IMG/VR virus record: IMGVR_UViG_2700989400_000004
Span: 6,939-70,938 of that record
Source: a virus
Lineage: Duplodnaviria; Heunggongvirae; Uroviricota; Caudoviricetes
DNA: 64,000 nucleotides
Reading direction: 5' to 3' (one strand)
Shown piece by piece: positions 3,074-59,081 of this stretch (its first letter is position 1; each line of letters opens with the position of its first letter). Both the position numbers and the translations under genes were made by a program. The notes beneath the pieces were generated by a model. It was not told where the DNA came from. It did no database searches and worked only from the letters and a program-made list of their open reading frames with translations.

Positions 3074-3874
3074 TTACACATGGCTGTTTTCCTCCATGCG
3101 ACGGGCTAACCAACGCTGCGAAAGACGAATTAATTCAGCTTTCCGCTGGTGGTAGTCCTGGCCTAACTCAATCAGCGTGATATTGCTCTGCTCAAGGTAA
3201 GAAAGATGCTCAAGCTGCAACGTGCTCATGTGGTCGCGTGGTTCGCCTGTGATGCCGTTCGCCTGCGCCCACTGTTTTGCAGTCATGCCACCCAGCACGA
3301 TACGCGCCAGCATATTGGCTTCCGTGGTGTAGTGGTGCTGTAGAGTGTTTTTACCCAGCTCAGCCCGGTACGCCTCCAGCGCGGCACACATTGGCTTAAA
3401 GTAGCTGGCAACTGTGATACGGGCTTTCAGTTCCCGGCGTAACACTGCGGAACGCACTGGCGCTACCTTGTGTAGCTCCTCCTCGCATTTGATAAAGTAC
3501 TGACGAACGGCGCGGCCCTGTTCGGTGCGTTCGACCATCGCCAGTTCTTTCGCCATGTTCACTGTGATGATGTACTCAAGAGCTGTTTGCTGGCGAGATT
3601 TTGCGCTCACCGGATCGGGTCGGCTCAAATATTCAACAACCTCATAATCCACGCCTTCCGTGAACCCGTATTCTTCAATGCGCCCCTTGATCCACGAACG
3701 GAAAACGCGCCCTACACCTAACGCCTTATGTAACGCTCTGGCGCTAACAATAGTGGTTTCACGCCCACCAATAACGCCGGAAATAACCGGAATAATTTCA
3801 GCGAAATTTTGCAGATTCTGTTTTTCAGGCCGAACGAAGCCCCGCCCCTGTACAGGCGTATATCCAGTATTCAT
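3074..3874 (-). CDS. phage antirepressor-like protein (Ant/KilAC-type)
   Basis: 266-aa ORF with N-terminal motif ALHKALGV…FRSWIK…YGFTEGVDY typical of phage antirepressor N-domains; sits downstream of alpA in the island. Confidence 0.5.
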   Translation of the reverse strand: MNTGYTPVQGRGFVRPEKQNLQNFAEIIPVISGVIGGRETTIVSARALHKALGVGRVFRSWIKGRIEEYGFTEGVDYEVVEYLSRPDPVSAKSRQQTALEYIITVNMAKELAMVERTEQGRAVRQYFIKCEEELHKVAPVRSAVLRRELKARITVASYFKPMCAALEAYRAELGKNTLQHHYTTEANMLARIVLGGMTAKQWAQANGITGEPRDHMSTLQLEHLSYLEQSNITLIELGQDYHQRKAELIRLSQRWLARRMEENSHV

Positions 3875-4478: not shown

Positions 4479-5729
4479 TTATATTTCTCTGGCTATTGGC
4501 AGTGTGGTTACGTTTTCGTGAGCACCTGCCAGTATCTCTAATCGCTCTGTCCACATATCCAGCGCGTTACGTTTCGCATCAATATAGCGGGAGTGGTTAT
4601 AGACTCGTTGCATCCCTGGCATCTGGTGGGCGGTAAGTTGCTCGACAATATGCGGATCCACGCCTAAATCGTTCAGCATCGTGGTAAACGTGCGCCGTAT
4701 ATCGTGCAGGGACCAGTGAGGATGGTTTAATTTTTTGTGCGTAAATCTGCCGTATTGTGACACGCTGGCTTCCTGTTTCAGTTCTCCGAGTAATAACCCT
4801 GTGTGCCTGTTCTGCTCCACCAGTTGCGTGACGAACGGCAAAATGCTTTCCGGTATTGGCCTGAATATGGCGACCTTCGTTTTGCTGTGTTCTTTCGGTA
4901 CCGTCCAGAGCATTTCCTTAAAATCCCACTCCCTGATCTCCGACAGCCTCAGTTCTCCAGTTCGGCAGCCAAACACAATCAGGAGGCGGATTAGCGCGCT
5001 GTAGTAGGGCGGGAATATTTTTTTATCCAGCGCCTGTAATAATTCGCCCAGTTCTTTGTTACTAAGCACGCGTTCGCTTATGCCTGGCTTTTTGCCAACG
5101 TCCACCACGTTGAGATCATCCAGAACGTTACTGACTGCGTAGCGACGTTTTCGGCAGAACTTAAGCGCCTGTTTACACGCCTGCATCATGTGACCAGACG
5201 TTACAGGGGATTTTTTGCGTATCCGGTCAAAACAGGCCAGCCAGTGACGTAACTCGCATTTATCCAGTGGCATATTGCCAATATGCTGTATGACGTGATT
5301 ATTCAGGCGGCTGTTCAGGGAGACGTAATCGACACGGTTTTCCTTTACGTGCATTTCCAGCCAGTAGCTGATCGCATCACCCACCGTTACCGGCTTTAGT
5401 GCTTCCTGTATGGAGTAATTAAGCTCATGGCGTGGATTTTTTCCTTCTGCCAGCCATGCGCGACACTGTGCCGCTTTTTCCCTGGCTGCTTTCAGGCTCA
5501 GATCAGGATAATTTCCCAGCTTCAGGCGTTCCGGTGATACCAGGCGTCCAGCTCCTGCCCTGTAGGTGAAATACCAGGTTAACAAGCCGCTGGTGGAATG
5601 CCTGACGCTCAGGTTTCCACCGTCATTAAGAAATGTGGTTTTTGGGGCTGGTGTGCCGTTGATTTTTCTTAGCTGTGTATCGCTCAGTTTGTTAAGTGCT
5701 CTGCTCATAATTTTGAATCCGGTCATCAC
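4479..5729 (-). CDS. int: P4-type tyrosine integrase (site-specific recombinase)
   Basis: 416-aa ORF; N-terminal arm-type domain (LSDTQLRKINGTPAPK…YPDLSLKAAREKAAQCRAWLAEGKNP) and C-terminal catalytic domain (…HDIRRTFTTML…); GTG at 5729 or ATG at 5726. Confidence 0.85.
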   Translation of the reverse strand: MMTGFKIMSRALNKLSDTQLRKINGTPAPKTTFLNDGGNLSVRHSTSGLLTWYFTYRAGAGRLVSPERLKLGNYPDLSLKAAREKAAQCRAWLAEGKNPRHELNYSIQEALKPVTVGDAISYWLEMHVKENRVDYVSLNSRLNNHVIQHIGNMPLDKCELRHWLACFDRIRKKSPVTSGHMMQACKQALKFCRKRRYAVSNVLDDLNVVDVGKKPGISERVLSNKELGELLQALDKKIFPPYYSALIRLLIVFGCRTGELRLSEIREWDFKEMLWTVPKEHSKTKVAIFRPIPESILPFVTQLVEQNRHTGLLLGELKQEASVSQYGRFTHKKLNHPHWSLHDIRRTFTTMLNDLGVDPHIVEQLTAHQMPGMQRVYNHSRYIDAKRNALDMWTERLEILAGAHENVTTLPIAREI

Positions 5730-6074: not shown

Positions 6075-6983
6075 TTAACTTTGCAGATAGCCGCATTCTC
6101 GCCGGAATTGCGTGATTAATGACGCGGTCAGTGGTGTCTGGCGACTATCACGCCGCTGAATCAAATAATAGGCCGCTTTCGGTAAAATTTCGCTAACCGG
6201 CAACATCACCAGCCCCTGTCCGTGCAAGGGATCGCAGCCCATTTCTTCAGGCAGTATGCTGAGAAAATCGCTTTTTGCCACCAGACTGATACAGGCTGAG
6301 AACGTCTCGCAGACTACACCGACCTGTGGCGTTTGCGCCTGATCGTCAAGCAATTCACTCAACTGTTTGTAGTAGCTGCCGTGTGGCGTCGGCATTGTCC
6401 AGCTGTAATCCAGTAACTGTTTGATCGAACGGGCACCAATGGCGGGGTGTCCCGGGCGGCAAAAGATCGCGAATTGCTTTTCCAGTAATTTCTCAAAAGT
6501 AAATTCGTGGTCGTACGGTCCCTGATAATAGGTATTGATGGTGAAATCCAATTCTCCCTGACGCAATTCATTAATCATCGACACCAGTTGCCCTTCCATA
6601 ATGCGTACTTTTACCTGCGGATGCTGCTGATGAAAACGAGATATGACAGCTGGCATCAGACTGCGGGAAATACTGGCCCCCATGCCGATATTAATCTGCC
6701 CTGCCAGTTGCCCTTGTCGTTGGCGAATATCCTCTTGGGCTGCGCGCAGTTCTTCAAGAATAAGACTGGCGTGCTGATAAAAACTTTCACCGGCATCAGT
6801 TAACGTCACGCCTTTACTACGGCGAAAAAAGAGTTGCGCCGCTAATCCTTCTTCCAGCTCCTGAATAGATTTACTCAGTGCCGGTTGCGACATATTCAAC
6901 ATTCGGCTCGCTCCGCGAATGCTGCCCTGACGAGCCACTTCAACAAAAGCACGAATTTGATGAATTTTTACCTGAAAAGCCAT
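6075..6983 (-). CDS. abgR: LysR-family transcriptional regulator AbgR
   Basis: 302-aa ORF with N-terminal LysR HTH (…IRGASRMLNMSQPALSKSIQELE…) and substrate-binding domain; divergent from the abgA operon. Confidence 0.9.
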   Translation of the reverse strand: MAFQVKIHQIRAFVEVARQGSIRGASRMLNMSQPALSKSIQELEEGLAAQLFFRRSKGVTLTDAGESFYQHASLILEELRAAQEDIRQRQGQLAGQINIGMGASISRSLMPAVISRFHQQHPQVKVRIMEGQLVSMINELRQGELDFTINTYYQGPYDHEFTFEKLLEKQFAIFCRPGHPAIGARSIKQLLDYSWTMPTPHGSYYKQLSELLDDQAQTPQVGVVCETFSACISLVAKSDFLSILPEEMGCDPLHGQGLVMLPVSEILPKAAYYLIQRRDSRQTPLTASLITQFRRECGYLQS

Positions 6984-7158
6984 GACGCCACCGATAACCG
7001 TTATTTATCAGACCAAAGAAACTGGCATCTACTTTAATGCAGATGATTGTGTCAGGGTAATTTATGAACGGTTAAAACTGTGAAAAATCAGTTAGTGATA
7101 AGTAAAAACTATCGCTACGTGAACCGGGTCACACTTTTTACTGATGACGGGAAAGGTT

Positions 7159-8469
7159 ATGGAGTCTTTGAATCAATTTGTTAATTCGCTTGCCCCAAAA
7201 TTATCGCACTGGCGACGTGATTTTCATCACTATGCAGAGTCTGGCTGGGTGGAATTCCGCACTGCCACCCTTGTTGCGGAAGAATTGCAGCAGCTCGGCT
7301 ATTCACTGGCGCTGGGCCGCGAAGTAGTTAATGAAAGTAGCCGGATGGGACTACCTGATGAACTCACTCTACAACGCGAATTCGAGCGCGCTCGTCAACA
7401 GGGTGCGCTAGCACAATGGATTGCGGTTTTTGAAGGTGGTTTCACTGGTATCGTCGCCACCCTGGATACCGGTCGCCCCGGTCCGGTGATGGCTTTCCGT
7501 GTCGATATGGACGCGCTGGATCTCAGTGAAGAGCAGGATGTCAGCCATCGCCCCTACCGCGACGGTTTTGCGTCATGTAACGCCGGAATGATGCATGCCT
7601 GTGGTCATGATGGACATACCGCCATTGGGCTTGGGCTGGCGCATACCCTTAAACAATTCGAGTCCGGACTACATGGCGTCATCAAACTGATTTTTCAGCC
7701 TGCAGAGGAAGGTACGCGTGGCGCGCGGGCGATGGTCGATGCAGGTGTCGTAGATGATGTTGATTATTTTACTGCCGTGCACATTGGCACTGGCGTACCT
7801 GCGGGCACCGTGGTGTGCGGCAGTGATAATTTTATGGCAACCACCAAATTTGACGCGCACTTCACCGGTACCGCCGCTCACGCAGGCGCAAAACCAGAAG
7901 ACGGTCACAATGCCTTGTTGGCGGCAGCACAAGCCACTCTTGCACTGCATGCAATCGCCCCGCACAGCGAAGGAGCTTCCAGAGTAAACGTGGGCGTTAT
8001 GCAGGCAGGAAGCGGTCGTAACGTTGTTCCTGCCTCGGCGTTGCTGAAAGTGGAAACACGCGGGGCCAGCGACGTCATTAATCAATATGTTTTTGACCGT
8101 GCACAACAAGCGATTCAGGGCGCAGCAACCATGTATGGTGTCGGCGTTGAAACTCGTCTGATGGGTGCAGCTACCGCCAGTTCTCCTTCGCCGCAATGGG
8201 TCGCATGGTTGCAAAGTCAGGCGGCTCAGGTCGCGGGGGTCAATCAGGCCATTGAACGTGTTGAAGCGCCTGCGGGTTCCGAAGATGCCACATTAATGAT
8301 GGCCCGCGTGCAGCAACATCAAGGGCAAGCCTCCTACGTGGTGTTTGGCACACAGCTGGCGGCAGGTCATCACAACGAAAAATTCGATTTTGACGAGCAG
8401 GTTCTCGCTATTGCCGTCGAAACGCTGGCGCGCACCGCGCTCAATTTTCCCTGGACGCGAGGTATCTGA
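7159..8469 (+). CDS. abgA: p-aminobenzoyl-glutamate hydrolase subunit A (M20 peptidase family)
   Basis: Start at MESLNQFVNSLAPKL with GGGAAAGG SD; M20 metal-binding motifs (…MHACGHDGH…); stop overlaps abgB start. Confidence 0.9.
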   Translation: MESLNQFVNSLAPKLSHWRRDFHHYAESGWVEFRTATLVAEELQQLGYSLALGREVVNESSRMGLPDELTLQREFERARQQGALAQWIAVFEGGFTGIVATLDTGRPGPVMAFRVDMDALDLSEEQDVSHRPYRDGFASCNAGMMHACGHDGHTAIGLGLAHTLKQFESGLHGVIKLIFQPAEEGTRGARAMVDAGVVDDVDYFTAVHIGTGVPAGTVVCGSDNFMATTKFDAHFTGTAAHAGAKPEDGHNALLAAAQATLALHAIAPHSEGASRVNVGVMQAGSGRNVVPASALLKVETRGASDVINQYVFDRAQQAIQGAATMYGVGVETRLMGAATASSPSPQWVAWLQSQAAQVAGVNQAIERVEAPAGSEDATLMMARVQQHQGQASYVVFGTQLAAGHHNEKFDFDEQVLAIAVETLARTALNFPWTRGI

Positions 8470-9914
8470 TGCAGGAAATCTATCGTTTTATCGACGATGC
8501 GATTGAAGCCGATCGCCAACGTTATACCGATATTGCCGATCAAATCTGGGATCATCCAGAAACACGTTTTGAAGAGTTCTGGTCAGCGGAGCATCTGGCT
8601 TCGGCGCTGGAATCTGCAGGCTTCACCGTTACCCGCAACGTAGGCAATATCCCAAATGCCTTTATTGCTTCGTTTGGTCAAGGCAAACCGGTTATCGCCC
8701 TGCTGGGAGAATATGACGCCCTGGCAGGTTTAAGTCAGCAAGCAGGTTGCGCGCAACCTACATCCGTGACGCCCGGTGAAAATGGTCACGGTTGCGGACA
8801 CAATTTGCTGGGAACCGCCGCCTTTGCCGCTGCAATAGCCGTCAAGAAATGGCTGGAACAATATGGGCAAGGCGGCACAGTGCGCTTTTATGGTTGTCCT
8901 GGCGAAGAAGGCGGCTCGGGTAAAACGTTCATGGTCCGCGAGGGGGTATTTGATGATGTGGATGCGGCACTCACCTGGCACCCGGAAGCCTTTGCCGGTA
9001 TGTTCAATACACGCACGCTGGCAAACATTCAGGCATCATGGCGCTTTAAAGGGATCGCAGCACATGCCGCGAATTCCCCTCATTTGGGACGCAGCGCCCT
9101 TGATGCCGTAACGTTGATGACCACTGGCACCAACTTCCTCAACGAACATATTATTGAAAAAGCGCGCGTACACTATGCCATCACAGATAGCGGCGGGATC
9201 TCGCCCAACGTGGTCCAGGCGCAGGCAGAAGTGCTTTATCTTATCCGTGCCCCCGAAATGACCGACGTGCAGCATATTTATGATCGGGTCGCCAAAATCG
9301 CCGAATGTGCGGCATTGATGACCGAAACCACGGTTGAATGCCGCTTCGACAAAGCCTGTTCCAGTTATCTCCCGAATCGCACCTTAGAAAATGCCATGTA
9401 CCATGCCCTATCCCATTTTGGTACCCCGGAATGGAACTCCGAAGAACTGGCTTTTGCGAAACAAATTCAGGCTACGCTCACCCCCAACGATCGGCAAAAC
9501 AGTCTGAATAATATCGCCGCAACCGGTGGCGAAAACGGCAAGGTTTTTGCACTACGTCATCGTGAAACGGTACTGGCGAATGAGGTCGCTCCATATGCCG
9601 CCACCGATAACGTGCTTGCGGCATCGACTGATGTCGGCGACGTCAGTTGGAAACTGCCTGTTGCCCAGTGTTTCAGCCCCTGTTTTGCCGTCGGTACACC
9701 GCTACATACGTGGCAACTGGTTAGCCAGGGGCGAACATCTATTGCTCATAAAGGAATGCTGCTGGCGGCGAAAACTATGGCAGCAACCACAGTCAATCTC
9801 TTCATTGATTCAGGGCTATTGCAAGAATGCCAACAAGAGCATCAGCAAGTTACGGACACGCAACCGTATCACTGCCCTATCCCGAAAAACGTGACACCGT
9901 CACCTTTAAAATAA
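8469..9914 (+). CDS. abgB: p-aminobenzoyl-glutamate hydrolase subunit B (M20 peptidase family)
   Basis: 481-aa ORF with M20 signature (…GHGCGHNLLGT…), coupled to abgA. Confidence 0.9.
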   Translation: MQEIYRFIDDAIEADRQRYTDIADQIWDHPETRFEEFWSAEHLASALESAGFTVTRNVGNIPNAFIASFGQGKPVIALLGEYDALAGLSQQAGCAQPTSVTPGENGHGCGHNLLGTAAFAAAIAVKKWLEQYGQGGTVRFYGCPGEEGGSGKTFMVREGVFDDVDAALTWHPEAFAGMFNTRTLANIQASWRFKGIAAHAANSPHLGRSALDAVTLMTTGTNFLNEHIIEKARVHYAITDSGGISPNVVQAQAEVLYLIRAPEMTDVQHIYDRVAKIAECAALMTETTVECRFDKACSSYLPNRTLENAMYHALSHFGTPEWNSEELAFAKQIQATLTPNDRQNSLNNIAATGGENGKVFALRHRETVLANEVAPYAATDNVLAASTDVGDVSWKLPVAQCFSPCFAVGTPLHTWQLVSQGRTSIAHKGMLLAAKTMAATTVNLFIDSGLLQECQQEHQQVTDTQPYHCPIPKNVTPSPLK

Positions 9915-9950
9915 CAACAACAACGCAAACACAACAACCGAGGAATGCCC

Positions 9951-11396
9951 ATGAGTATGTCATCCATACCGTCGTCCTCCCAATCCGGGAAGCTCTATGG
10001 CTGGGTCGAAAGAATTGGTAACAAGGTTCCCCATCCTTTTTTGCTCTTTATCTATTTGATAATCGTACTCATGGTGACGACGGCAATTTTGTCAGCCTTT
10101 GGCGTCAGTGCGAAAAACCCGACCGATGGTACGCCGGTGGTGGTGAAAAACCTGCTCAGTGTGGAAGGATTACACTGGTTTTTACCCAATGTGATTAAAA
10201 ACTTTAGCGGTTTTGCTCCACTTGGAGCGATCCTGGCGCTGGTTTTAGGTGCCGGCCTAGCGGAGCGCGTCGGCTTACTGCCAGCGCTAATGGTTAAAAT
10301 GGCATCGCATGTTAATGCCCGCTACGCCAGTTATATGGTGCTGTTTATTGCTTTTTTCAGCCACATTTCTTCCGATGCGGCGTTAGTGATCATGCCACCG
10401 ATGGGTGCGCTGATTTTTCTGGCGGTGGGCAGGCATCCAGTTGCAGGTTTACTGGCTGCCATTGCAGGCGTAGGTTGCGGCTTTACGGCTAATTTACTGA
10501 TTGTCACAACCGACGTGTTGCTGTCGGGGATCAGCACGGAAGCGGCGGCTGCGTTCAATCCGCAAATGCACGTCAGTGTAATTGATAACTGGTATTTTAT
10601 GGCCAGCTCCGTAGTCGTACTGACGATTGTTGGCGGCCTGATAACCGACAAAATCATCGAGCCACGATTAGGTCAATGGCAGGGAAACAGCGATGAGAAA
10701 CTGCAGACATTGACCGAAAGTCAGCGTTTTGGTTTACGCATAGCAGGTGTCGTATCGCTACTTTTTATTGCTGCGATCGCGCTGATGGTGATCCCGGAAA
10801 ACGGGATATTGCGCGATCCGATTAATCACACCGTGATGCCATCACCCTTTATTAAAGGTATCGTGCCACTGATCATTCTTTTTTTCTTTGTTGTCTCGCT
10901 GGCTTATGGCATCGCTACCCGCACAATTCGACGTCAGGCGGATTTACCGCATTTAATGATTGAACCGATGAAAGAGATGGCGGGATTTATCGTGATGGTT
11001 TTTCCCCTCGCCCAATTTGTCGCCATGTTTAACTGGAGCAACATGGGGAAATTCATCGCCGTGGGGCTGACCGATATACTTGAAAGTTCAGGGCTTAGCG
11101 GCATCCCGGCGTTTGTCGGTCTGGCGTTGCTTTCCTCTTTCTTATGCATGTTTATTGCCAGCGGTTCCGCAATCTGGTCGATTCTGGCCCCCATTTTCGT
11201 ACCAATGTTTATGCTACTTGGCTTTCACCCGGCATTTGCGCAAATCCTCTTTCGTATTGCCGACTCATCCGTATTGCCTTTAGCGCCGGTATCTCCTTTT
11301 GTTCCACTGTTTCTTGGATTCCTGCAACGCTACAAACCAGACGCAAAACTGGGTACTTACTATTCGTTAGTCTTGCCCTATCCGCTTATCTTTTGA
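9951..11396 (+). CDS. abgT: p-aminobenzoyl-glutamate transporter AbgT
   Basis: Start MSMSSIPSS… with GAGGA SD; polytopic membrane protein; C-terminal end abuts the prophage boundary. Confidence 0.85.
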   Translation: MSMSSIPSSSQSGKLYGWVERIGNKVPHPFLLFIYLIIVLMVTTAILSAFGVSAKNPTDGTPVVVKNLLSVEGLHWFLPNVIKNFSGFAPLGAILALVLGAGLAERVGLLPALMVKMASHVNARYASYMVLFIAFFSHISSDAALVIMPPMGALIFLAVGRHPVAGLLAAIAGVGCGFTANLLIVTTDVLLSGISTEAAAAFNPQMHVSVIDNWYFMASSVVVLTIVGGLITDKIIEPRLGQWQGNSDEKLQTLTESQRFGLRIAGVVSLLFIAAIALMVIPENGILRDPINHTVMPSPFIKGIVPLIILFFFVVSLAYGIATRTIRRQADLPHLMIEPMKEMAGFIVMVFPLAQFVAMFNWSNMGKFIAVGLTDILESSGLSGIPAFVGLALLSSFLCMFIASGSAIWSILAPIFVPMFMLLGFHPAFAQILFRIADSSVLPLAPVSPFVPLFLGFLQRYKPDAKLGTYYSLVLPYPLIF

Positions 11397-43400: not shown

Positions 43401-44582
43401 AATATGTCCGTATGAATACCATCTGTTACCTACCCAAATTTGATATTCTTCACCATCATAGTTAATTTTGATTGTAAACTCGTCAACCTCCATTATTAAT
43501 CCTTTATCGAGGATATCATTTAACATATCATCCCATTCTTTGAGAAATGGCTGTTGATAGAAACCGAAAAGTGTATTTGCAGCGTGGCAAAGGTAATCAA
43601 GGATTATTTGCATATTATCACCACATCATATAGTAAACGTTATCATCAGCTAATGCGTCGGCGTCTTCCTGCGTCATGTGCCGCGCTTCCAGAAAGAAAT
43701 CATCATCATGCCATTCACTAACAAGCATACGCGCCCATTTACGGCGGCGTCGCTTATTGCGTCGCAGATCATCAAAAGCCATTAATGCTTTGTCGTATGC
43801 CCTTACAAGGCGCTTACGGTTACTTTTCATTTTCACCTCTCAACATCCAATTTCTGTCACATTTAATTGCGAATACCTTAACAGGATCAGGGCCGAATAA
43901 TGGATGAGTGATAGTTTTTACTTCGTACCCAAAATAAGGAAGGTTAATAATCCTGTGTTTTTCGTGGTTGGCAGGGTATCCCCATTTAATAATCAGGCGT
44001 TCATATTCCCGCCCTTCAAGACGTTTACGCCAATAGTCATTATAAAGCCGGTATTCCTCCACCTTCTTTCCAGTCCATATGGCGTGAAAGTATTCACCTT
44101 TCAGATTCAAATGTAGGTCTTTACTTGCCATCGCTATGATCCTGTAAACAGTCGTTATAGCCTTCTATATATCCGGTTAATCCGGTGTTACTCACTGACC
44201 ATTCAGCCGTCCGGCGCTTGATGGCCTCGTCCATCGTGATTTCACCTTTGCGATGACATCCGGCATCAATATAGCGGTTAACAACCGAAGATAGCCGCCC
44301 GCGTAGCTGTTGTGTTCCGGCGTAATATCGGGCCGTATCCGCAAGCTCGTTAATCAACTGGCGGTAAATATGTTCTTTTAATTTAGGCTTCATTATCGTC
44401 ACCCCGCTTGTAAATTTTGACAGGCTTAATAGGGATGGCGGGCAATTCGCCTTCATTTAATGCGCTTGCCATACCCAATATTAAACGCGCTTCCGCACCA
44501 GTGACTTTCTTACACCATGCGCCGCCTTTTTTATCTTGAAATAAGATAACAGCAAACTGATCGTTTATTTCCAGCTTATCCA

Positions 44583-45311
44583 TTATTCACCCCGTGTAAC
44601 TCGTTTAATTTCGCTTTCAGCGCGGGCCTCTTCTTTGAATAGCTCAGCTATGGCGTCTTCATAGAAAACCCGGTATTTCTTCCACCATGTTGATCGGCTT
44701 ACCGGAAAAACAAGCTGATTAACCGCCTGCCGGACGAGATCTACAGGGAAACGCGAGTACCCGCGCCCGCCGCAATGCTGGCACGTTTTGAATACTGGCA
44801 TTTCCGCCGCTTCGCTGGCTGTTTTATCCGGTACTTCGCCGCGCCCCTTGCACCGCTGGCAATGGTTTTTAACGTAGCCTTTGCCGCCGCACCGTGCGCA
44901 AATTGTTGATGTGTATTCGCATTCATGGTGAGGTAAAAGCCCGTTACCGCCGCACTTAGGGCAAACTTTTTCGGTCGCCGCACTCTGGCAATAATCCCGA
45001 AACGCGAAAACGGCAACAAGAATAATAAGTCCATTGCGCTGATCCTCGTTTAACTCCATCACGTATTCGTAATCTTTTGCCATCGATTTTAAGCGGTCTA
45101 TAAGCAACGACACGGCTTTATTTTTTTCAGCTTGCGATAGCTCCATCTTTCCCAAAAAAGCGCTATAACCCAGTGTTACGCGCGATTGCGCCATACCCGC
45201 AGCGGTTAGCGCATCCGTTGTATTAAGCGCATCCGGGGACGTGCCCCGGCTTTCATCTGATAATCGCGGTGATTTGGGAAAGTGGAATTTCAGAATGGAT
45301 TCTAAATTCAT
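44583..45311 (-). CDS. zinc-finger protein with four CxxCxGxG repeats (DnaJ-type); possible Q-like late antiterminator
   Basis: CPKCGGNG / CARCGGKG / CQRCKGRG / CQHCGGRG; lies just downstream of rusA/ninG-type genes as Q does in lambdoid phages. Confidence 0.4.
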   Translation of the reverse strand: MNLESILKFHFPKSPRLSDESRGTSPDALNTTDALTAAGMAQSRVTLGYSAFLGKMELSQAEKNKAVSLLIDRLKSMAKDYEYVMELNEDQRNGLIILVAVFAFRDYCQSAATEKVCPKCGGNGLLPHHECEYTSTICARCGGKGYVKNHCQRCKGRGEVPDKTASEAAEMPVFKTCQHCGGRGYSRFPVDLVRQAVNQLVFPVSRSTWWKKYRVFYEDAIAELFKEEARAESEIKRVTRGE

Positions 45312-45476
45312 TATTTGCCCCCGTAACGCGCTGCCAGTCGTTTACGATCAGAAATAGACTGGACTAACTTTCTCTCAAGCTCTTTCAGTGCTAGCAATTC
45401 GCGCATGTGAAAAGCCTGGATTTGTCGGACCGTCTCTAAATCATGCTCGTCGCGCTGAATACCTATTTGCAGATCT

Positions 45477-45896
45477 TTAATTTCGTTTTTCATTGTCACC
45501 CCACATATTAGTCGCGTATTCGTCAATATCCGGTAGTAGGTCGCCGCGTTCGCGGATCTTAATAAACAAGCGCCCGCCTTTTACCTTCCGGCAGCGGACA
45601 ATTTTTATTGAGTCGATTTGCCCGTCATCCTTCCAGAATCCGGCATAAGTAAGGCTGTCAAAAAGGCATTTAGGGATATTGTCCAGATCTCTGATCCGGT
45701 TATCCGGCGGCGCGGCATAAATGGCGATTGCCAGTCGGCAAGATAGGTTAATGTTTAAATTTAATAGCTCGATGATGTCTCTTACTTGTTCCCTGTATTC
45801 CTTCCCCACTTTGCTGATATAGTGAAAACCGCGCGAATGTCGGTAATAGCGGTTATTCGACGGCGGGTAAGGCAGGCTAAAAGAATATTCATTCAT
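45477..45896 (-). CDS. rusA: Holliday-junction resolvase RusA
   Basis: N-terminal …SLPYPPSNNRYYRH… and …DLDNIPKCLFDSLTYAGFWKDD… match the RusA family. Confidence 0.8.
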   Translation of the reverse strand: MNEYSFSLPYPPSNNRYYRHSRGFHYISKVGKEYREQVRDIIELLNLNINLSCRLAIAIYAAPPDNRIRDLDNIPKCLFDSLTYAGFWKDDGQIDSIKIVRCRKVKGGRLFIKIRERGDLLPDIDEYATNMWGDNEKRN

Positions 45897-46498
45897 GCTG
45901 CCTTTCTCCTTAAGGCGTCCAATTTAGCCTGATAGATGTTTATTAGCTCCTTACATTCTGCGATCGTCCATTTATGCGTATCATTGTTGTTTTCCAGTGC
46001 TACCACCCTTGCGAGGCCAATTTTTCGAATCAGTGCCGGGCGATACCCTCCTATGTTTCCGTCTAATGTCTGGTTGCAGTGCCTGCATTGTTTATGGCAA
46101 TTATCCTCGTTAAAGCGAAGGTGTCCTGCGGCGGCAACCGTCCTGTAATGGCCCGCATCCCACCCGCATTGCTCACCGTAGTAAGTCCCGCAGGATATAC
46201 ACGGCAAGCGCGCGTCACGTTCGCGGATATAGGCGTTGAATACGTTTTGAACTTGCTTGATCCAGTAGCTGCGCGGATTTAACTGTTTCCGCTTCCGGTT
46301 GCGTTCTTCCCGCTGGCTATCGCGGCGTTTCTTCCGTTCCATCGCCTTCATAGCCTTTTCACGGTCGCGGCATAGCTGATCAAACTTCAGTTCTTCCAGA
46401 CATTCATCGCTGCACCACGTCTGATTGTGATATTTAGGCTCAAAAAAAACGCCGCAGCACTTGCAACGGCGTCTTATGGGTTTTTTAGGGTTTTGCAT
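45893..46498 (-). CDS. ninG: NinG (Rap) recombination protein
   Basis: Cys-rich N-terminus (…RRRCKCCGVFFEP…) and …CGWDAGHY…CHKQCRHCN… as in lambda NinG; ATG at 46498 with GGGGTGGA SD. Confidence 0.75.
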   Translation of the reverse strand: MQNPKKPIRRRCKCCGVFFEPKYHNQTWCSDECLEELKFDQLCRDREKAMKAMERKKRRDSQREERNRKRKQLNPRSYWIKQVQNVFNAYIRERDARLPCISCGTYYGEQCGWDAGHYRTVAAAGHLRFNEDNCHKQCRHCNQTLDGNIGGYRPALIRKIGLARVVALENNNDTHKWTIAECKELINIYQAKLDALRRKAA

Positions 46499-46512
46499 AA
46501 AATCCACCCCAA

Positions 46513-46689
46513 TTATTTTCGATTTTCGATTTCGTTCGGCTTTGCGGCGGCTCCGGCCCTTAGCCAATGATCTACGCATTTGTTGCACTCGTTACAGTCT
46601 CCTTTGTTTGGGTTACACAAATTGCACATTGCCCGCATTACGCATTCGCGCTCGTAGTCGTCATGCCACGCATACCTGTCATCGTTCAT
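46513..46689 (-). CDS. small Cys-rich (zinc-ribbon-like) protein, 58 aa
   Basis: Not in ORF track (<60 aa); MNDDRYAWHDDYERECVMRAMCNLCNPNKGDCNECNKCVDHW…; strong AGAAGGAG SD. Confidence 0.4.
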   Translation of the reverse strand: MNDDRYAWHDDYERECVMRAMCNLCNPNKGDCNECNKCVDHWLRAGAAAKPNEIENRK

Positions 46690-46852
46690 AATTTGATCTC
46701 CTTCTGTTAGGCGATGTGTTTCCGCATTTCAGCGGGGCCGGATTTTTAAAGAGCATTTCGTTTGATTGCAGTATACAAAATGGATGCACCTGGACAAAGT
46801 AAAAAGCGCCATTATGTGACGCTAATCACACAATGACGCCATTTTGTAAACT

Positions 46853-47617
46853 TTAGTCCGGTAAAACGCGGTTAAGCGTCGTCCGCGTGATGGCCCGGTC
46901 GTTAGCCAGGAATACAGCACGGGCGAAGCCGCGCGGCGTTAGTGAGCGGATCATCTTAGTGCGCTTCGACTTTCCGCCTAACTTCGCGTGCTGCTTACTG
47001 TCTTCCCATTCATCCGGCATTGGTACAGGCCGGAATAGCGGCTGCTTAAATCCATTCCCACACCAAATACATGTTTTCTTCGTGTAGGCGTCGCGGGCGG
47101 CGATGTATTCCGGGAAAGCGGGATGTTTATCATCTTCCGGCAGGTAGCCACCATAAGCGCACGGATTGAAGATAAAATCCGGTTTACGCCATAACGTTGA
47201 TAGTGCGCCTACCGGATTTTCTACCATCCACGGCACGTTATACATATTCGCCAGTTTTTCTACCAGTTTTGCGTTATGCGCCGCCTTCACCTGGAAGTCA
47301 GGGTCTTTTTTCCGTTTATCAGCGAACCAGCGAGCGCCTGAAACGGCGAGATTGTCGCATGGAGGAAAGCCCAGGATAATGTCAGGATCTGGATATACAG
47401 ACAATTCAGGGGAGAACATTACCAGGAAATGGCTATCAATCCAGACATTGACATATTCAATATTGGGATGAATTATTTTTACCCCGTCATAATCCCCGTG
47501 ATTAGCGCCGTCATAGTTGAAGCAATAACATTTATAACCAGCGTCCGCCCAATCTTTAACGGCGTACCCGCTGCCGTCATATAGCGACCACACCACCCAA
47601 TTTCTAAGCCCGCTCAT
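46853..47617 (-). CDS. putative DNA methyltransferase-like protein (C5-cytosine MTase-like motifs, atypical)
   Basis: Motif I-like SLYDGSGYA, motif IV-like GFPPCDNLAVSG (PC-D not PC-Q), motif VI-like MVENPVG; short (254 aa). Confidence 0.4.
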   Translation of the reverse strand: MSGLRNWVVWSLYDGSGYAVKDWADAGYKCYCFNYDGANHGDYDGVKIIHPNIEYVNVWIDSHFLVMFSPELSVYPDPDIILGFPPCDNLAVSGARWFADKRKKDPDFQVKAAHNAKLVEKLANMYNVPWMVENPVGALSTLWRKPDFIFNPCAYGGYLPEDDKHPAFPEYIAARDAYTKKTCIWCGNGFKQPLFRPVPMPDEWEDSKQHAKLGGKSKRTKMIRSLTPRGFARAVFLANDRAITRTTLNRVLPD

Positions 47618-48159
47618 TTTCTACCCTCAAACGTGAAATAGCGGCGCATGATGATAGTAATCACCGTTACCGCTGCCATTTTTGAGATAAATTGCATAGC
47701 TGATATTTCCGGCATAAATGCCATAAACGATAGCGTTGGGAAAATTAACGCATCACCTATGGCGGACGCTATATTTGCAGGCCATCGTTTTGAATCAAAG
47801 TCACCAGGCAAAACCCGGTAAACGCCGCCAGAAATAAGCGCACCGGAAACAACCGCGACAAATGACGCGATCGCCACCATTCCGGCATCGTAATTTATCA
47901 GCACAGTGATTGCGCCAGCGGCGGCGCATGTTGTAGCCGACCATTTCAGGCCGCCGTCATATAACAGGAAGTCACGGATCATCATATTGACACACACAGC
48001 GGCTACCGTGGTGATCGGAATTACCCACGGGCCGCAATGGTTAACAATAAGATTGATGATCACGAAAACGGCGACATAAACGCAGGCTAATAACCTGTCA
48101 ATTGTCACCCTTTCCATTTTTATGATACCCCGCCGCGCGTAATAGTGATTCGTTGTCAA
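47614..48159 (-). CDS. polytopic inner-membrane protein
   Basis: 181 aa with about five hydrophobic segments; possible transporter; coupled to the methyltransferase-like gene. Confidence 0.45.
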   Translation of the reverse strand: MTTNHYYARRGIIKMERVTIDRLLACVYVAVFVIINLIVNHCGPWVIPITTVAAVCVNMMIRDFLLYDGGLKWSATTCAAAGAITVLINYDAGMVAIASFVAVVSGALISGGVYRVLPGDFDSKRWPANIASAIGDALIFPTLSFMAFMPEISAMQFISKMAAVTVITIIMRRYFTFEGRK

Positions 48160-48602
48160 ACTTCACATCAAGCCGATTAATAATCTCACCACCGTTAAAC
48201 ATCACAGTTGGGATTGTCCCTGGTGCAATAGATGGCTCTGGTCCAGCAAGATCAGCAAAAGTTTTCTTCAATCCACCGATAGGGAGATCAAAAACGCCCT
48301 GTTTTTTCTTTTGTTCTTCCTCCCGCTCCGTTAATATTTGCTCCGCTTTTAGCGCGTTGTAGCTAATCAAATCAATTAGCGTGTCTGTCGGATCGCTATT
48401 ATTGCTCAAAATAGCTTCTAATCGCGCCTCCTTGAGACAAATTAGTAGATCCCATACATCAAGCGGGGTTAAATTTGCCCCCTTCTTAGCGTTGTAAATA
48501 GCGGCTATTTTTGGCGCTGATTTTTCCTCTTTTTTGTCGTATCCGTTTTGCTTACCTCTTTGCTCTATGGTTTCCGCCGCAAGTCTCAATAAATCTGTTG
48601 CC

Positions 48603-49091
48603 TTAGTCATTATTTGCACCTCTTGCGTATAGCTCTTTACGTGTTATCTGCGTGAAAATACATTCATGTTTGCACCGTGGATGCCAGATCAAGAACAAGC
48701 TCCCTTTATTGTTTCCGCTTGCTGGCTTACCCGTCGCAGCATTAATAAACGCCAGCCGCCCGCGCGTGATTAAGCGACATTCGCTTGCCGTCTCCAGGCC
48801 GTTCATAAACCAGTTAACAGAGATATCAGCGGGCAACAACATTACACAGCCAATATGATTTCGGTGATGTTCCATCGCTGCCTTATCTACGAATGGCCCC
48901 GGATTCGAATATGGCGGATTAAGCCAGACATATTCACCAGGCATTGCTACCGCTCCCCACGGATAATGGAGTGTGTCCATCTCTTCGGTTATATATCGCG
49001 GAACTAATGCGTTTGCCTTGTTTGCCGCCACATCCGCGACGAATTCGAATTCACGGTCCATTCCTCTAAAACGGGTTTTGGCGTTTGCCAT
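48603..49091 (-). CDS. phage-type DNA N6-adenine methyltransferase (Dam-like)
   Basis: …EYVWLNPPYS… catalytic NPPY motif in a ~160-aa phage Dam-type protein. Confidence 0.6.
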   Translation of the reverse strand: MANAKTRFRGMDREFEFVADVAANKANALVPRYITEEMDTLHYPWGAVAMPGEYVWLNPPYSNPGPFVDKAAMEHHRNHIGCVMLLPADISVNWFMNGLETASECRLITRGRLAFINAATGKPASGNNKGSLFLIWHPRCKHECIFTQITRKELYARGANND

Positions 49092-50120
49092 AAGTCCTTT
49101 ATTTCTTTTGGCGTATGGCTTCCGCCGTAATCATTTTTCATTACGCCCCCTTAGAAATAATCCTGATCTGCTCCCCAGCGGTTATTCAGATATCCCACCA
49201 ACCACACAAAACGCTCAATACTGATTAGCGGGGCGACCTTGCGATAATGCTTATCTAATATCAGCCGCGTGGCTTTATCGCTATATCCGTTTCTTTCTAC
49301 CTCTGCTTTGCAGGCAGAAAGCGCCGCGCGTGCGGCAGTTTTTACGGCGTTGAATTGCGGCTCTGACAGGTTGAATAAAGCCATATAATCACCACGGATC
49401 ATCTCAATAAGTCGAGGCCACCCAGAAAAAACCCACGAAAACACTAAAAGCGAATAGCACGCGTATACCCAAAAGCAATTCCGCCCACGACTGAACATCA
49501 GGAAGCGACCATGTGATAAACATTGCGCCGACGATCAGGACGGCAATAACAACGGCGCACGCCAGGAAAAATAAAAGCGCGGCTGAAAGCCACGCCCCAA
49601 AAAAGTGAAACACTTCTCTTAACATTTAAACGTCCTCAATTACCCCGCCTTTCACGCGTTCTTTAATATCCCATACGTGAGGCTTACACATTTCTTGATA
49701 ATAGTGATCCGGCCTGCTGCCGAAATACCATTTGCCATCCATATAAAAATAAACGCCCGAAAAATTACCAGGTGCGGCCTTTGTTGCTGCTTCTGGAATT
49801 TTCCATTCTCTGTAGTGTTTAAACTTCATACATTAACACCGCCTTTTTAAGTTCGCTTAATTCAAAGTGCATCAAGCGAAAATGCTGTACACCGCCAACA
49901 ATACTGACCTGATAAATATCACCAACGCAGTTATAGTAATAACAACCCAATTGACCGATTCCGGCTAATTTAGCGTTATCCGGTATCATGTATTCGCCAA
50001 CCTTTTTCATATTCAGCCTCACAAATATTTTTCAATCACCCAGCGGAGAAACAAACCAACCGCCACGATCCCCCAGCAACAAACCATGAAGTAAAACTCG
50101 GCCTCATTCGCACTCATTCC

Positions 50121-50658
50121 TTACCTCCCGTGGTTTTCATGATACCCGTACTCGATTTCAGCTTTACGCCTCGCTTCGATCGCTTCATCTATGCTATCTG
50201 AGTAGCATAGATATTTTTTCTTTCCGTCAACGGTAATATAAGATCTCCATTTCTGAGTTAATTTATCCCAATAAACACCCGTGCATCCAGAAGTGTTATT
50301 TTTCTGCTTAGCTCTATTCTTTGCGTTTTCCTGTCTCGTCACTATTCGAAGGTTATCAAGCCTATTATTAAGGCGATTATGTCTATATGGTCTATTTGAT
50401 AGCCTTCCGGGATTGGGCCGTTGTGCATCTCCCATATTATCCTGTGAACGCAATACCTTTTCCCGCAAAACATAAACCCCTGTACCCACCCTCATACAGA
50501 GTACTCCCTGCTACGTCTCCGGCTTTAACCCTGAAACCAGTAGGTTTCTTCCAAATTAGATTGACTCCGTCGTAATAAAACCACTCTCGCCAGTCAATAG
50601 CGTCCATTGTGTTTTCCCTCTTCCCAAGCGAAATACCCGACAAAACCAACCAGAACAA
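50121..50658 (-). pseudogene. HNH-AP2 homing-endonuclease-like gene split by a frameshift
   Basis: 50121..50495 carries HNH (…YRHNRLNNRLDNLRIVTRQEN…) and AP2-like (…GVYWDKLTQKWRSYITVDGKKKYLCYSD…) motifs; the N-terminal-like part is in another frame (50437..50658). Confidence 0.4.
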
Positions 50659-52617
50659 TCAACCAGCAAGCCAGGATTAAATCAATCAGCCACATGATTA
50701 AGCCTCCATAACCGCGTAATCGAAGCGCCCTAAATACATCTCGATGCCGATCATCTCGACGCCCTGGACGTCCGCGCCCCATACAGTTACGTGATAAGCG
50801 TCCTCCCGCCATTGTTCATGGCTTAGCACTTCGTTTGCTGGATATTTCCGCCCCGCGACGTAAGCGCCCGGACCTACGCCACCTTCTACGCAATACAGCA
50901 TGATCTGGTTTTCCATATCGCACCTCGTTAATAGCAAACTGCGTACATACAGATCCCGTTGTTAAAGGCTTTGATGATCATGTCGATGACCATGTAAACG
51001 AGCATTACAGCCGCCGCTGGGACAAGGATCGCGAATAGTCCGCCTAACGTGCGCTCAATAATGAAATGCGGGTTTACTTTGCTTTTGTGGTTACGTTCAA
51101 AGTTTGTCATCTTCCCGCCCTCCGTGCTGTATACCTTTCGACTTCAGTTTACAAAACGGATACAGCGGGACAATACAAAATGTATATTTATGTGATCGGT
51201 ATCACGCGATTAATGCAGTACACGTTTTTCCGGGTGAGGCATTGGCTGTGCACGTTTCCGCGCTTCATTCAGCACTGACGCCACCGCCCGGACGCCAAAA
51301 TCATTAGCCCGCATATCATTGCCGACCATCTCGCCATAAATAAGCGGCATAAATTGCCTTGCGTTATCCTCGATGTGTCCATTTTCAACCGCTTTCTGAA
51401 GTACGCCAGCCTCAAGGATATCGCGCATCAGTTCACGGATTGTATATAATGAAGCACTACCCATCGCCCCTTCGCCCAGCGGGACAATCACCGCGCTACC
51501 ATATGCAAGCGGATCCAGTTCTTCCGGTACTGGTACACGTCCAAAATCTTCTTCCATGCGTTTTACGAAAGTAAGGCAGAAGACGTAACGCGCTACCGAT
51601 GTTTTCTCTTCCGCATTCAAAGATACGTAATCGCGCATTGACGCATCCATTACAAGATCAGCAATTTGTAGCGCCAGGTTTAAATCCCCGTCATACACGC
51701 CCGCGTCCATATCTTTAATGACTTCGTGGTAGTTCTTTGTTTCCACTTCATGAAAACATGCGTCCTCTGTGTAGCGAGTGATTAACATGCCTTCGCTGCC
51801 AAGTGAATAAGCTGTTTTGATGTCGTTCATGATATTTATCCTTATAACGGGTGATGCCATCGCATTTCAGTTTCTGAATTAAACGGGATACCTTCGCTTG
51901 AAAGGAATAAATCACGCTCCCGTTTCAGTTCTTCCGGGCTTATTTCTATTTCATCAATCTGACCGAACGATCCCGGCATCATTCTTTTTAAATCAGATAG
52001 CGGACGCATAAGGCCGCAACCGCGTAACAGCATATCGACCGCGAATTGTCTACGTCCGGCGGCGTCATTAAAGCGCCGTGCCCAGGGCACAACCACGATC
52101 CGGCGTTCGAATTCGATAAATAGTGATAGCTTGTTTGTTTCGCTATCATATGCTTTATGGAATTTAATTTTCATTTAACACCTCGACGTATTGCTCAAGA
52201 TGCCATTTACCCACCTCGTCGTCTTCTTCATCAAATAATGTTACTTGACCCCCTGGCCCGAAAGAAAAGGCAGCGACAATAAATTTATAGCCATACCACG
52301 TGCGGATCTTTTCGCCGCCTTTCAGGTCTTTAACTTTCACTAATTTTATAGCCATACGCCAAACATCCCATTCAATCCGGCGAACAACTGCCGCCAGTGG
52401 TCTTCAACATAAGCCCGGAAAGGCTTAACGCGAACATTGCGGGCCTTCAGCGTGATACTGTCAAAATAACGCGGCTCGATCAGCGTACCATCAAGGTATT
52501 GAACGAGGATCGGGCGCTCAAAGTCGCTACATGTTTTATTCAGCACGACCAGACCGGGGTCACTACGATATGCGGGCAAAACAACGAGATCACCCGCCTT
52601 TGCATCCCATAACATCA

Positions 52618-57874: not shown

Positions 57875-58025
57875 CTACCCAGCCTGATTAAATTCGATTT
57901 TAAGCCACTTTTTAGCGCCACTGACGCAATAAGACACTGCAACATGTGCAAACGTGTTACGCGGTGGGATTTTGCGTTGTAGCGCGTCTGAGGCGTTATA
58001 TAGAAAATTAAGAAAGGAGGTATAT

Positions 58026-59081
58026 ATGATTGCTACTTATCATATGAAACTCAATTGTAAGGACACGCAATTACTGTCTGTTAATAATCTGGTTTCTGAA
58101 CTTAAGATTGATAGACTTAAATCATTTGTTAAATATTCTGATCTTTACGGATTTGAGGAATACAAGGATTTTATTATTGATGGTGATGATGTGTATATCA
58201 CACCTATAACGTTTATTAGATTCGTTACACCTGGTAAATATAGACATTATGAATATAATGAAAATTGGGTTAAGCCAGTTATTGAATCTTGTGGATTAGT
58301 TGACTTGCAAGATGTCTTTAATAAATATTCAAATAATACCAAAAAAGATAGTCCTTACGCTTATAATTATATTTTATGGTGTAACAACTATGTTGAAACG
58401 AGTGATACTCCTGGTCGATGTTCTGTGTATGTGTCAAAAGAAGATGCTGAAAAGTATAAAAAATGGTTGTTCGTTACTCGCGGAGTATCAATAGAAAAAC
58501 TATGGGTAAGGTTGTTCCATTCAAGCGATATTGCAGATCCAGATACGTTTTTAGCTGAACACCTCAATAATGATGAGTTTACCATTGATTTAAATATTGA
58601 ATATTTTATAGTTAAAACAAATTATGGATATGAAAGGTATATTAGCGATAAGATAGCAGAAAAGTATCATATATGGGGTGAAAGTAAAGGGCTTAGTAAT
58701 AATTTTGAGTGCGGGAATTATAACGACATAGAAAACTTTATTAAATTAAAAAGCGACAAGGATGTAATTGAGGAAATAAAAAAGGAATGCGACGCGAAAT
58801 TATCAGAAATGAGCGGTCATTGTAAAAATATGATTAGAAAGCGTTATGAACACGCTGGTTTAACTATGTATGAAAAACTAAAGGGTGTTAAATTAATAAG
58901 GCAATATCCTGTTAATGTTGCTGGCAATAAGTATTTTATCGATGGCTACGATCCTGTGAATAATGTTGCTGTAGAAATTGATGAATCACATCACAAACGG
59001 CAAGTAAAAAGCGATGCGATAAGACAAAAATGCATTGAAGATTATTTGGGGTGCAAGTTTTTTCGTTGTGCTATATCCTGA
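58026..59081 (+). CDS. AT-rich gene: protein with C-terminal restriction-endonuclease-like domain (candidate defence/abortive-infection protein)
   Basis: 351 aa from MIATYH…; perfect AGGAGG SD; visibly AT-rich versus flanks; C-terminus …YFIDGYDPVNNVAVEIDESHHKRQVKSDAIRQKCIEDYLGCKFFR… resembles DUF559/Vsr-type endonuclease fold. Confidence 0.6.
   Translation: MIATYHMKLNCKDTQLLSVNNLVSELKIDRLKSFVKYSDLYGFEEYKDFIIDGDDVYITPITFIRFVTPGKYRHYEYNENWVKPVIESCGLVDLQDVFNKYSNNTKKDSPYAYNYILWCNNYVETSDTPGRCSVYVSKEDAEKYKKWLFVTRGVSIEKLWVRLFHSSDIADPDTFLAEHLNNDEFTIDLNIEYFIVKTNYGYERYISDKIAEKYHIWGESKGLSNNFECGNYNDIENFIKLKSDKDVIEEIKKECDAKLSEMSGHCKNMIRKRYEHAGLTMYEKLKGVKLIRQYPVNVAGNKYFIDGYDPVNNVAVEIDESHHKRQVKSDAIRQKCIEDYLGCKFFRCAIS

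Follow-up and report, generated by a model that had tools for sequence, protein, structure and literature searches.

A four-gene operon of mEp021-like coliphages joins a divergent C5-cytosine-methyltransferase-like gene to a short YhhQ-family transporter gene

Introduction

Why does a temperate phage carry, at the end of one operon, a cytosine-methyltransferase-like gene whose start codon overlaps the stop codon of a membrane-protein gene? The locus that raises this question lies in a 64,000-nucleotide (nt) stretch of viral DNA, positions 6,939 to 70,938 of the IMG/VR record IMGVR_UViG_2700989400_000004, and the whole of this stretch is called the window here. Four tightly packed genes on its minus strand, at 46853-49141, encode a Dam-family N6-adenine methyltransferase, a DUF6378 protein, a membrane protein of the VUT (YhhQ/Vut_1) family and a C5-methyltransferase-like protein of 254 amino acids (aa), and are followed by a strong terminator. 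A first, sequence-only reading had described three of them as a DNA-modification cluster on a leftward operon; these genes are real and adjoining, but the actual count is four, the DUF6378 gene having been overlooked. The explanation that we favour, with modest confidence, is that the operon combines two solitary DNA methyltransferases, one forming N6-methyladenine (m6A) and the other probably 5-methylcytosine (m5C), which protect phage DNA, with a DUF6378 protein and an independent importer of a 7-deazapurine-type base.

The carrier is an mEp021/mEpimmI-type temperate siphophage integrated in Escherichia coli. Among named phages, Escherichia phage MagusPhagus comes closest, at 91% identity, followed by the mEp021/mEpimmI group, at 84-86%. 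Of 5,426 complete E. coli genomes, 35 contain the module.

The last gene encodes a minimal C5-methyltransferase-like protein

The last gene of the operon belongs to a large phage-specific branch of C5-methyltransferases, with Cys87 as the nucleophile, Glu133-Asn134, Arg144 and a short, highly conserved variable region. Its product matches phrog_757, 'DNA methyltransferase', with an E-value of 5e-88, and has 2,351 homologous clusters, nearly all of 225-260 aa and phage-borne. In an alignment of 29 diverse homologues, G15-S16 (in DGSG after β1), P85-P86-C87, E133-N134-P135 and W143-R144 are invariant, G17 is nearly so, and the segment 150-239 is strongly conserved. P85-P86-C87 align to the PC of DNMT3B and Dcm, and motif VI, present as ENP instead of ENV, lies on strand E130-134 of an AlphaFold2 (AF2) model. 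In C5-methyltransferases, the glutamate of motif VI contacts the cytosine, and motif I (FxGxG) and motif X (GN) form the pocket for S-adenosylmethionine (SAM).

The AF2 model (predicted local distance difference test score, pLDDT, 86.8; predicted template-modelling score, pTM, 0.87) has a class I SAM-methyltransferase fold of the C5-methyltransferase type. Foldseek matched the model to DNMT3A/B, DNMT1 and MET1 in the PDB with a probability of 1.0, human DNMT3A/B being the best structural matches, and its matches in BFVD include the 'DNA-cytosine methylase' of Vibrio phage Vc1, Escherichia phage Henu8 and Shigella phage 2019SD1. A family profile aligned weakly with motifs I-IV of DNMT3B and M.HaeIII in the PDB (E 0.08-0.4); against E. 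coli Dcm, hhalign aligned motif IV alone, at low probability, with no mapping of motifs VIII-X. Single-sequence phmmer searches of the PDB with the 254-aa, membrane and DUF6378 proteins returned nothing meaningful. Among the 120 homologues listed, only 2 have a precomputed match to PF00145.

Judged by its motifs and predicted fold against the reference class of C5-cytosine DNA methyltransferases (M.HhaI, M.HaeIII and the DNMT3A/B catalytic domain; PF00145), the protein appears to belong truly to the superfamily, as a minimal and highly divergent representative that keeps the catalytic residues. The cytosine-methyltransferase-like motifs pointed out in the sequence-only reading are borne out, as DGSG, FPPCD and ENP, and the relation to methyltransferases, for which that reading had asked profile and structure comparison, is upheld by the phrog_757 and Foldseek matches. 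We found no published biochemistry on this branch. Similar domains (25-30% identity over ~250 columns) also lie inside two very large proteins of uncultured phages in BFVD, A0A6J5SE15 (1397 aa; annotated 'Helicase/UvrB, N-terminal') and A0A6J5NPY6 (1126 aa; uncharacterized).

The PC-D of motif IV had been taken as a deviant form of the catalytic PC-Q. The family consensus is FPPCT(D/H)LAVSG, in which PPC is invariant; the residue after PC is mostly Thr and is Asp only in the mEp021-like subclade. The whole family has PC-T or PC-D, and DNMT3A/B have PC-N. Because PC-D belongs to a variation that runs through the family and has a counterpart in DNMT3, it is not evidence of unusual chemistry.

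An unusual chemistry has, however, been described for a phage enzyme with a similar motif: SpCmoX (PDB 8YF3) is a DNA cytosine C5-carboxymethyltransferase with an SPPC motif (PMC12783734). The 254-aa protein, with FPPC, might likewise use carboxy-SAM (Cx-SAM) made by host CmoA and produce 5-carboxymethylcytosine. The family PPC resembles the SPPC of CmoX, and since E. coli has the Cx-SAM synthase CmoA (EcCmoA was a positive control, and a ΔcmoA strain was used, in PMC12783734), a coliphage would need no cmoA of its own. In CmoX, Arg R350 binds the carboxyl group of Cx-SAM, and the usual neighbours are cmoA and cmoY (PMC12783734). By contrast, the residue of the 254-aa protein at the likely HhaI N304/CmoX R350 position is probably hydrophobic (F231 within 'TPRGFAxAV', where family members have F, L, W or I), not Arg, in an alignment that is uncertain here, and neither cmoA nor CmoY (amide-ligase) is found among the neighbours (Dam, DUF6378, VUT, NinF and NinG). 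We therefore regard a CmoX-like activity as very unlikely.

The membrane protein is a short YhhQ-family transporter

The membrane protein is, to judge from profile comparisons, a short transporter of the YhhQ/Vut_1 family under very strong purifying selection. A word-indexed search with it returned only 12 close clusters, and a profile search of 1.84 billion representatives returned 286 relatives, several of the longer ones exceeding the 27.2-bit gathering score of Vut_1 (PF02592). The window protein alone has no Pfam match; 34 of the 38 members of its alignment match PF02592 (E<=0.01, best 1e-13). Compared by hhalign with E. coli YhhQ (COG1738, Vut_1), which is annotated 'queuosine precursor transporter', this 38-member alignment, headed by the window protein, gave a probability of 85% and an E-value of 5.9e-6 over 140 columns. 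The homology is almost full-length, with the common motifs xDLxxR(D), IAxAS and SNxxxxxxDSxxFPxxAF, whereas the phage protein is shorter (167 aa versus 221 aa), is without the loop insertions and falls below the Pfam threshold. Within the VUT family, R48, D122, F131 and K146 are invariant, and N22, D49, N115, F126 and A130 are nearly so. YhhQ is a preQ0 transporter, and phage homologues of it exist (PMC6884629).

The start codon of the membrane gene is most likely the ATG at 48117, which would give a protein matching homologues of 164-167 aa. Six helices are predicted, both in a low-confidence AF2 model and in the mEp021 annotation of six transmembrane segments, not the five of the sequence-only reading; a multi-helix open reading frame (ORF) coupled to the 254-aa gene was correctly recognized, and the two overlap at ATGA. 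The AF2 model, made from 7 sequences, is poor (pLDDT 58) and was not used for fold comparison.

A transporter of this family beside a C5-methyltransferase-like enzyme could also act on tRNA: the 254-aa protein would be a Dnmt2-like tRNA C5-cytosine methyltransferase, the transporter would raise queuosine-tRNA, and the pair would tune translation. The family does carry queuosine precursors, and Dnmt2 is reportedly stimulated by queuosine in eukaryotes. Nevertheless, DNA methyltransferases score clearly above Dnmt2, most members of the methyltransferase family have no transporter nearby, and the neighbouring genes (Dam, NinG and RusA) are those of DNA metabolism. To us, a role in tRNA methylation is barely credible.

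Phage relatives of the transporter adjoin DpdA

DpdA, the DNA guanine transglycosylase that inserts 7-deazaguanine, is regarded as the signature protein of 7-deazaguanine DNA modification (PMC10516641). In phage CAjan, the 7-deazaguanine cluster includes a yhhQ gene, which the phage can do without in rich medium (PMC7544227). Short VUT proteins occur at more than 515 IMG/VR loci, and neighbours were scored in the best 80. In 79 of these 80, a ~245-aa gene lies immediately upstream of the VUT gene with a 4-nt overlap; its match to phrog_887, 'queuine tRNA-ribosyltransferase' (E 4e-69), marks it as DpdA-like. The reverse order, VUT then DpdA, is seen in Pectobacterium phage PEAT2 (gp18-gp19, annotated 'VUT family protein' and 'queuine tRNA-ribosyltransferase'), in the Drexlerviridae coliphage vB_EcoD_Opt-719 and in contig L086, whose VUT-DpdA junction is the only informative part of the short contigs around P0138, P0140 and P0146. 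The overlapping pair looks like a minimal two-gene 'salvage and insert' module for 7-deazaguanine. The loci with these short VUT genes (~160 aa) are L093-L172, L175, L226 (4447-5274) and L227 (4411-5214), and a PAPS-reductase-like gene is also carried at 11 loci of this kind.

The operon in the window resembles the phage 7-deazaguanine modules (yhhQ and DpdA, in some cases joined by genes for preQ0 synthesis, as in CAjan and PEAT2) in having a transporter of the same short VUT-type family, in lying in an early DNA-metabolism region and in the overlap of the transporter gene with its neighbour. It differs from them in that the adjacent slot holds the C5-methyltransferase-like gene and DpdA is not found. 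Specifically, a hidden Markov model (HMM) of 68 VUT-adjacent DpdA-like proteins and tblastn detected no DpdA in the window, the part of mEp021 examined (L001), MagusPhagus (L002 and L083) or the more divergent phage contig L087, although other DpdA subfamilies could escape a single HMM. There is no DpdA annotation in MagusPhagus, and Pfam and PHROG scans of the remaining mid-size ORFs of the window gave no DpdA match. Because no DpdA was found in the window or the related genomes examined, 7-deazaguanine in the DNA of this phage is unlikely. In addition, no preQ1 riboswitch or other Rfam family was detected at window positions 44000-52000 at E<=1.

Other close VUT relatives adjoin a MazG-like pyrophosphohydrolase gene (L084), or two phrog_2510 genes and an N6_N4 methyltransferase gene (L088 and L219). 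The 234-aa gene downstream of VUT in L084 was tested as a methyltransferase homologue and is not one.

The methyltransferase and transporter genes are not paired across the family

Adjacent genes of the operon overlap at every junction, by 8 nt (Dam/DUF6378), 20 nt (DUF6378/membrane gene) and 4 nt (membrane gene/254-aa gene), which would allow translational coupling. At the last junction, the TGA stop of the membrane gene and the ATG of the 254-aa gene share ATGA, and a Shine-Dalgarno-like GAGGG lies upstream. The coupling of the two genes is real as a gene overlap, but it is not conserved at the level of the family. The four-gene module is present in 39 of 40 mEp021-like loci and also in L087, where the methyltransferase and VUT proteins are 65% and 52% identical to those of the window. 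In other phages (Drexlerviridae-like, ~44-kb and 120-146-kb), the methyltransferase gene stands alone: HMM searches found no VUT, DpdA or DUF6378 gene within 6 kb of it in 42 of 42 loci. In one related locus, L007 (5657-6004), the N-terminus of Dam is fused to the C-terminal half of VUT and the DUF6378 gene is lost; the methyltransferase gene is intact.

These distributions bear on a functional pairing of the VUT protein with the C5-methyltransferase-fold enzyme, in which an imported base or cofactor precursor would be used for a non-methyl or 7-deazapurine-linked nucleic-acid modification and the methyltransferase would stand in the place of DpdA. Besides the ATGA overlap with its GAGGG, such a pairing would account for the order of VUT gene and DNA-modifying gene, which is that of VUT and DpdA in PEAT2, Opt-719 and L086, for the retention of both genes in the divergent L087, for the position of VUT as the most constrained gene of the module (see below), and for the co-occurrence of both families in 117-140 kb phages. 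It is at odds with the disparity between 2,351 methyltransferase clusters and only 12 close VUT clusters, with the 42 solitary methyltransferase loci, with the survival of the methyltransferase gene in L007 after VUT was lost and with the unrelated genes (MazG-like, phrog_2510 and N6_N4 methyltransferase) that adjoin VUT relatives. Moreover, the covalent Cys-C6 adduct of C5-methyltransferases offers no route to base exchange. We consider the functional pair very unlikely, and we hold the same view of a two-component system that replaces the transporter-DpdA pair and needs an imported 7-deazapurine-type or other small precursor for a non-canonical modification of phage DNA or host tRNA (queuosine/Dnmt2-like), catalysed by a family whose present annotation is plain 'DNA cytosine methyltransferase'.

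A non-standard base modification had been suggested from motif IV together with the transporter-like partner. The part of that suggestion that stands is the transporter, which belongs to the Vut_1/YhhQ family and so to proteins linked elsewhere to DpdA-inserted 7-deazaguanine; the family-wide occurrence of PC-D, the unconserved pairing (the 42 loci and L007) and the failure to find DpdA speak against the rest.

Among the 117-140 kb IMG/VR contigs, the VUT loci are L219-L224 and the methyltransferase loci are L053, L056, L060, L062 and L065. The VUT context in L219-L224 consists of a YunG-like gene, VUT, two phrog_2510 genes and an N6_N4 methyltransferase gene, with no DpdA within 6 kb.

The first gene encodes a Dam-family methylase with a private frameshift

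The first gene encodes an m6A methyltransferase of the small phage Dam family, broken in this copy by a 1-nt deletion. Its ORF scores above both curated cut-offs, with 142.1 bits for PF05869 (cut-off 28.1; E 1.7e-41; model positions 19-167 of 169) and 110.4 bits for TIGR01712 (cut-off 97.05), and the (N/D)PPY motif of the family is present as NPPY in its translation. These matches confirm the phage Dam-type N6-adenine methylase of the sequence-only reading, but in a frameshifted form. A run of 5 nt (TTTTT, TTTTC or TATTT) is present in 65 of 65 related loci, and the shortened run of the window is unique among the 66 sequences. Intact homologues are 178-179 aa long, their start codon being the ATG that corresponds to window position 49141. 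In the window, the full-length frame is interrupted, and a 162-aa ORF restarts in a new frame; the start codon of the 45-aa fragment left upstream is the same as in MagusPhagus, mEp021, L003 and L010 in a DNA alignment that has a 1-nt gap in the window. Unlike the rest of the family, the window copy therefore has its catalytic part in a different ORF from the conserved WQTP segment of the N-terminus. The break could be a genuine mutation or a homopolymer sequencing error.

Purifying selection and erosion of the module

Relative to 40 related loci, the median ratio of nonsynonymous to synonymous substitution rates (dN/dS) is 0.03 for VUT, 0.07 for the methyltransferase-like gene, 0.10 for Dam and 0.23 for DUF6378. 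VUT, with 98% amino-acid identity, is the most constrained gene of the module. Because dN/dS is low, all four genes appear to be functional in the lineage and under purifying selection. In some prophages, the module erodes, as in-frame deletion and fusion variants show: in addition to L007, P0127 and P0131 are VUT-methyltransferase fusions (VUT N-terminus and methyltransferase C-terminus), and P0129 is a further deletion/fusion variant.

Might the module then be decaying prophage cargo without a current function in this strain? The frameshifted Dam of the window and the variants P0127, P0129 and P0131 would fit such decay. On the other hand, dN/dS is low for all four genes, the other three ORFs of the window are intact, the T-run is intact in every related locus, and the module is carried by isolated plaque-forming phages (mEp021 and relatives, and MagusPhagus); the frameshift itself, lying within a homopolymer, may reflect a sequencing error. 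We give the decay explanation very little weight.

Two solitary methyltransferases and an independent importer

In the explanation that we favour, the C5-methyltransferase-like enzyme would flip out a cytosine in phage DNA after replication, Cys87 would attack C6, and a methyl group from SAM would be transferred to C5. Together with Dam, where intact, the enzyme would shield progeny DNA from host restriction enzymes, a role that has been proposed for C5- and N6-methyltransferases of Drexlerviridae (PMC8594841). The transporter would import a 7-deazapurine-type base (preQ0, preQ1 or queuine-like), as its bacterial homologue YhhQ does, and its phage relatives presumably import the same for the adjacent DpdA. 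With no DpdA found in this phage, the imported base would probably not enter phage DNA but more likely feed the host queuosine-tRNA pathway or another acceptor. The methyltransferase and the transporter would act independently, and their adjacency would reflect cassette mosaicism, since the slot beside the VUT gene holds dpdA in other phages.

Several observations weigh against this explanation. The 254-aa protein has no match above threshold in Pfam (E<=0.1) or NCBIfam, PF00145 included. Of the SAM-pocket motifs, DGSG is present after β1, but no canonical motif X (GN) was located by sequence; the C-terminal 'TPRGFAxAV' is a candidate for either motif IX or motif X. An invariant Asn34 follows the β2 strand, in a position where an acidic residue is expected, after M.HhaI Glu40. 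The transporter has no obvious acceptor enzyme, yet it is the most strongly conserved product of the module, and the host E. coli already has its own yhhQ. The co-occurrence of VUT and methyltransferase-family genes in the 117-140 kb phage lineage, at distant loci, could hint at a functional link. Furthermore, in the BASEL study, resistance to restriction was not simply related to the presence of methyltransferase genes (PMC8594841), and the four module genes appear in the mEpimmI paper as annotation only, without functional work (PMC11893012).

If this ordinary explanation is true, the operon is an anti-restriction methylation module with an auxiliary uptake gene. Its interest then extends in two directions. 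The 254-aa protein represents a very large, phage-only C5-methyltransferase-like branch that curated models miss and whose hosts include temperate coliphages, Drexlerviridae, ~44-kb Salmonella-type phages and 120-150 kb phages; after the discovery of CmoX in 2025, such divergent branches are reasonable places to seek new cytosine chemistry. Short YhhQ-like transporters, for their part, are near-obligate neighbours of DpdA in environmental phages, which supports the view that many phages salvage, rather than synthesise, the inserted 7-deazaguanine base. With an equally constrained transporter and no DpdA found, the mEp021 group offers a clean natural test case for other phage uses of queuosine precursors.

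The DUF6378 protein

The start ATG of the DUF6378 gene overlaps the end of Dam (ATGACTAA). The protein is composed of a conserved N-terminal domain of ~100 aa and a hypervariable C-terminal half (window 48098-48400). Its C-terminal ~65 residues show 59-96% amino-acid identity and several indel types between otherwise near-identical phages, and in L087 the protein is the domain alone (99 aa). A family profile found no relative in the PDB, and no relation was detected to the MazG-like protein encoded after VUT in L084. We found no support for the PHROG label 'phosphofructokinase'.

Operon boundaries and neighbouring genes

The features of the operon are collected in Table 1. The terminator corresponds to the predicted TERM_4 of the mEp021 record, which sits just downstream of the cytosine methyltransferase gene and equals t4 in PMC11893012; in that 2025 paper on mEpimmI, nutR2 and t4 are placed directly after the methyltransferase gene. 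The mEp021 record labels the four genes putative Dam, hypothetical protein, putative membrane protein and putative DNA cytosine methyltransferase. Downstream of the operon, Pfam and PHROG matches identify NinF-like, NinG, RusA and Q genes. The best-supported placement of the operon is an accessory early, delayed-early (nin-type) region with leftward transcription ahead of ninF, ninG, rusA and Q.

Table 1. Features of the operon in window coordinates
Feature	Position	Strand	Basis and remarks
Intrinsic terminator, 16-bp stem and T-run	46805..46840	-	Terminator scan; 13 nt past the stop of the 254-aa gene
Minimal C5-cytosine-methyltransferase-like protein, 254 aa	46853..47617	-	DGSG, FPPC87D, E133-N-P and R144 motifs; phrog_757; AF2/Foldseek
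Short YhhQ/Vut_1-family membrane transporter, 167 aa	47614..48117	-	Profile search; PF02592 in relatives; hhalign to YhhQ; phrog_4899
DUF6378 protein, 170 aa	48098..48610	-	PF19905, E 2e-7; homologues annotated DUF6378
Main part of the Dam-family N6-adenine DNA methyltransferase gene, NPPY	48603..49091	-	PF05869, TIGR01712, phrog_111; ATG in shifted frame
N-terminal Dam fragment, 45 aa (MKNDYGGSHTPKEIKDLWQTPKPV.., carries ..DLWQTPKPV)	49004..49141	-	Cut off by the frameshift
T-run with private 1-nt deletion, 4 T versus 5-nt run	49068..49071		DNA alignment with relatives

The gene directly upstream of Dam, at window 49151-49384 (minus strand), is homologous to the mEp021 gene ipe, for 'inducer of pleiotropic effects', with 83% identity in tblastn. 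Its listed ORF of 115 aa probably starts at an internal Met, giving ~77 aa. Further upstream, at 50121-50658 (minus strand), an HNH endonuclease gene (phrog_99, E 2e-38) is apparently split into overlapping ORFs of 124, 73 and 43 aa and may be a frameshifted homing endonuclease. A 375-aa ORF at 57954-59081 (plus strand), between replication and exonuclease genes, matches no PHROG, and its sole hit is a weak one, at the C-terminus, to DUF559 (Vsr-like endonuclease); it may be an inserted cargo gene. At the tail-fibre end, the prophage is flanked by the host genes abgR, abgA, abgB and abgT (window 6075-11396), to the left of which a second integrase (4479-5729) and an AntA-type antirepressor (3074-3874) suggest a neighbouring mobile element.

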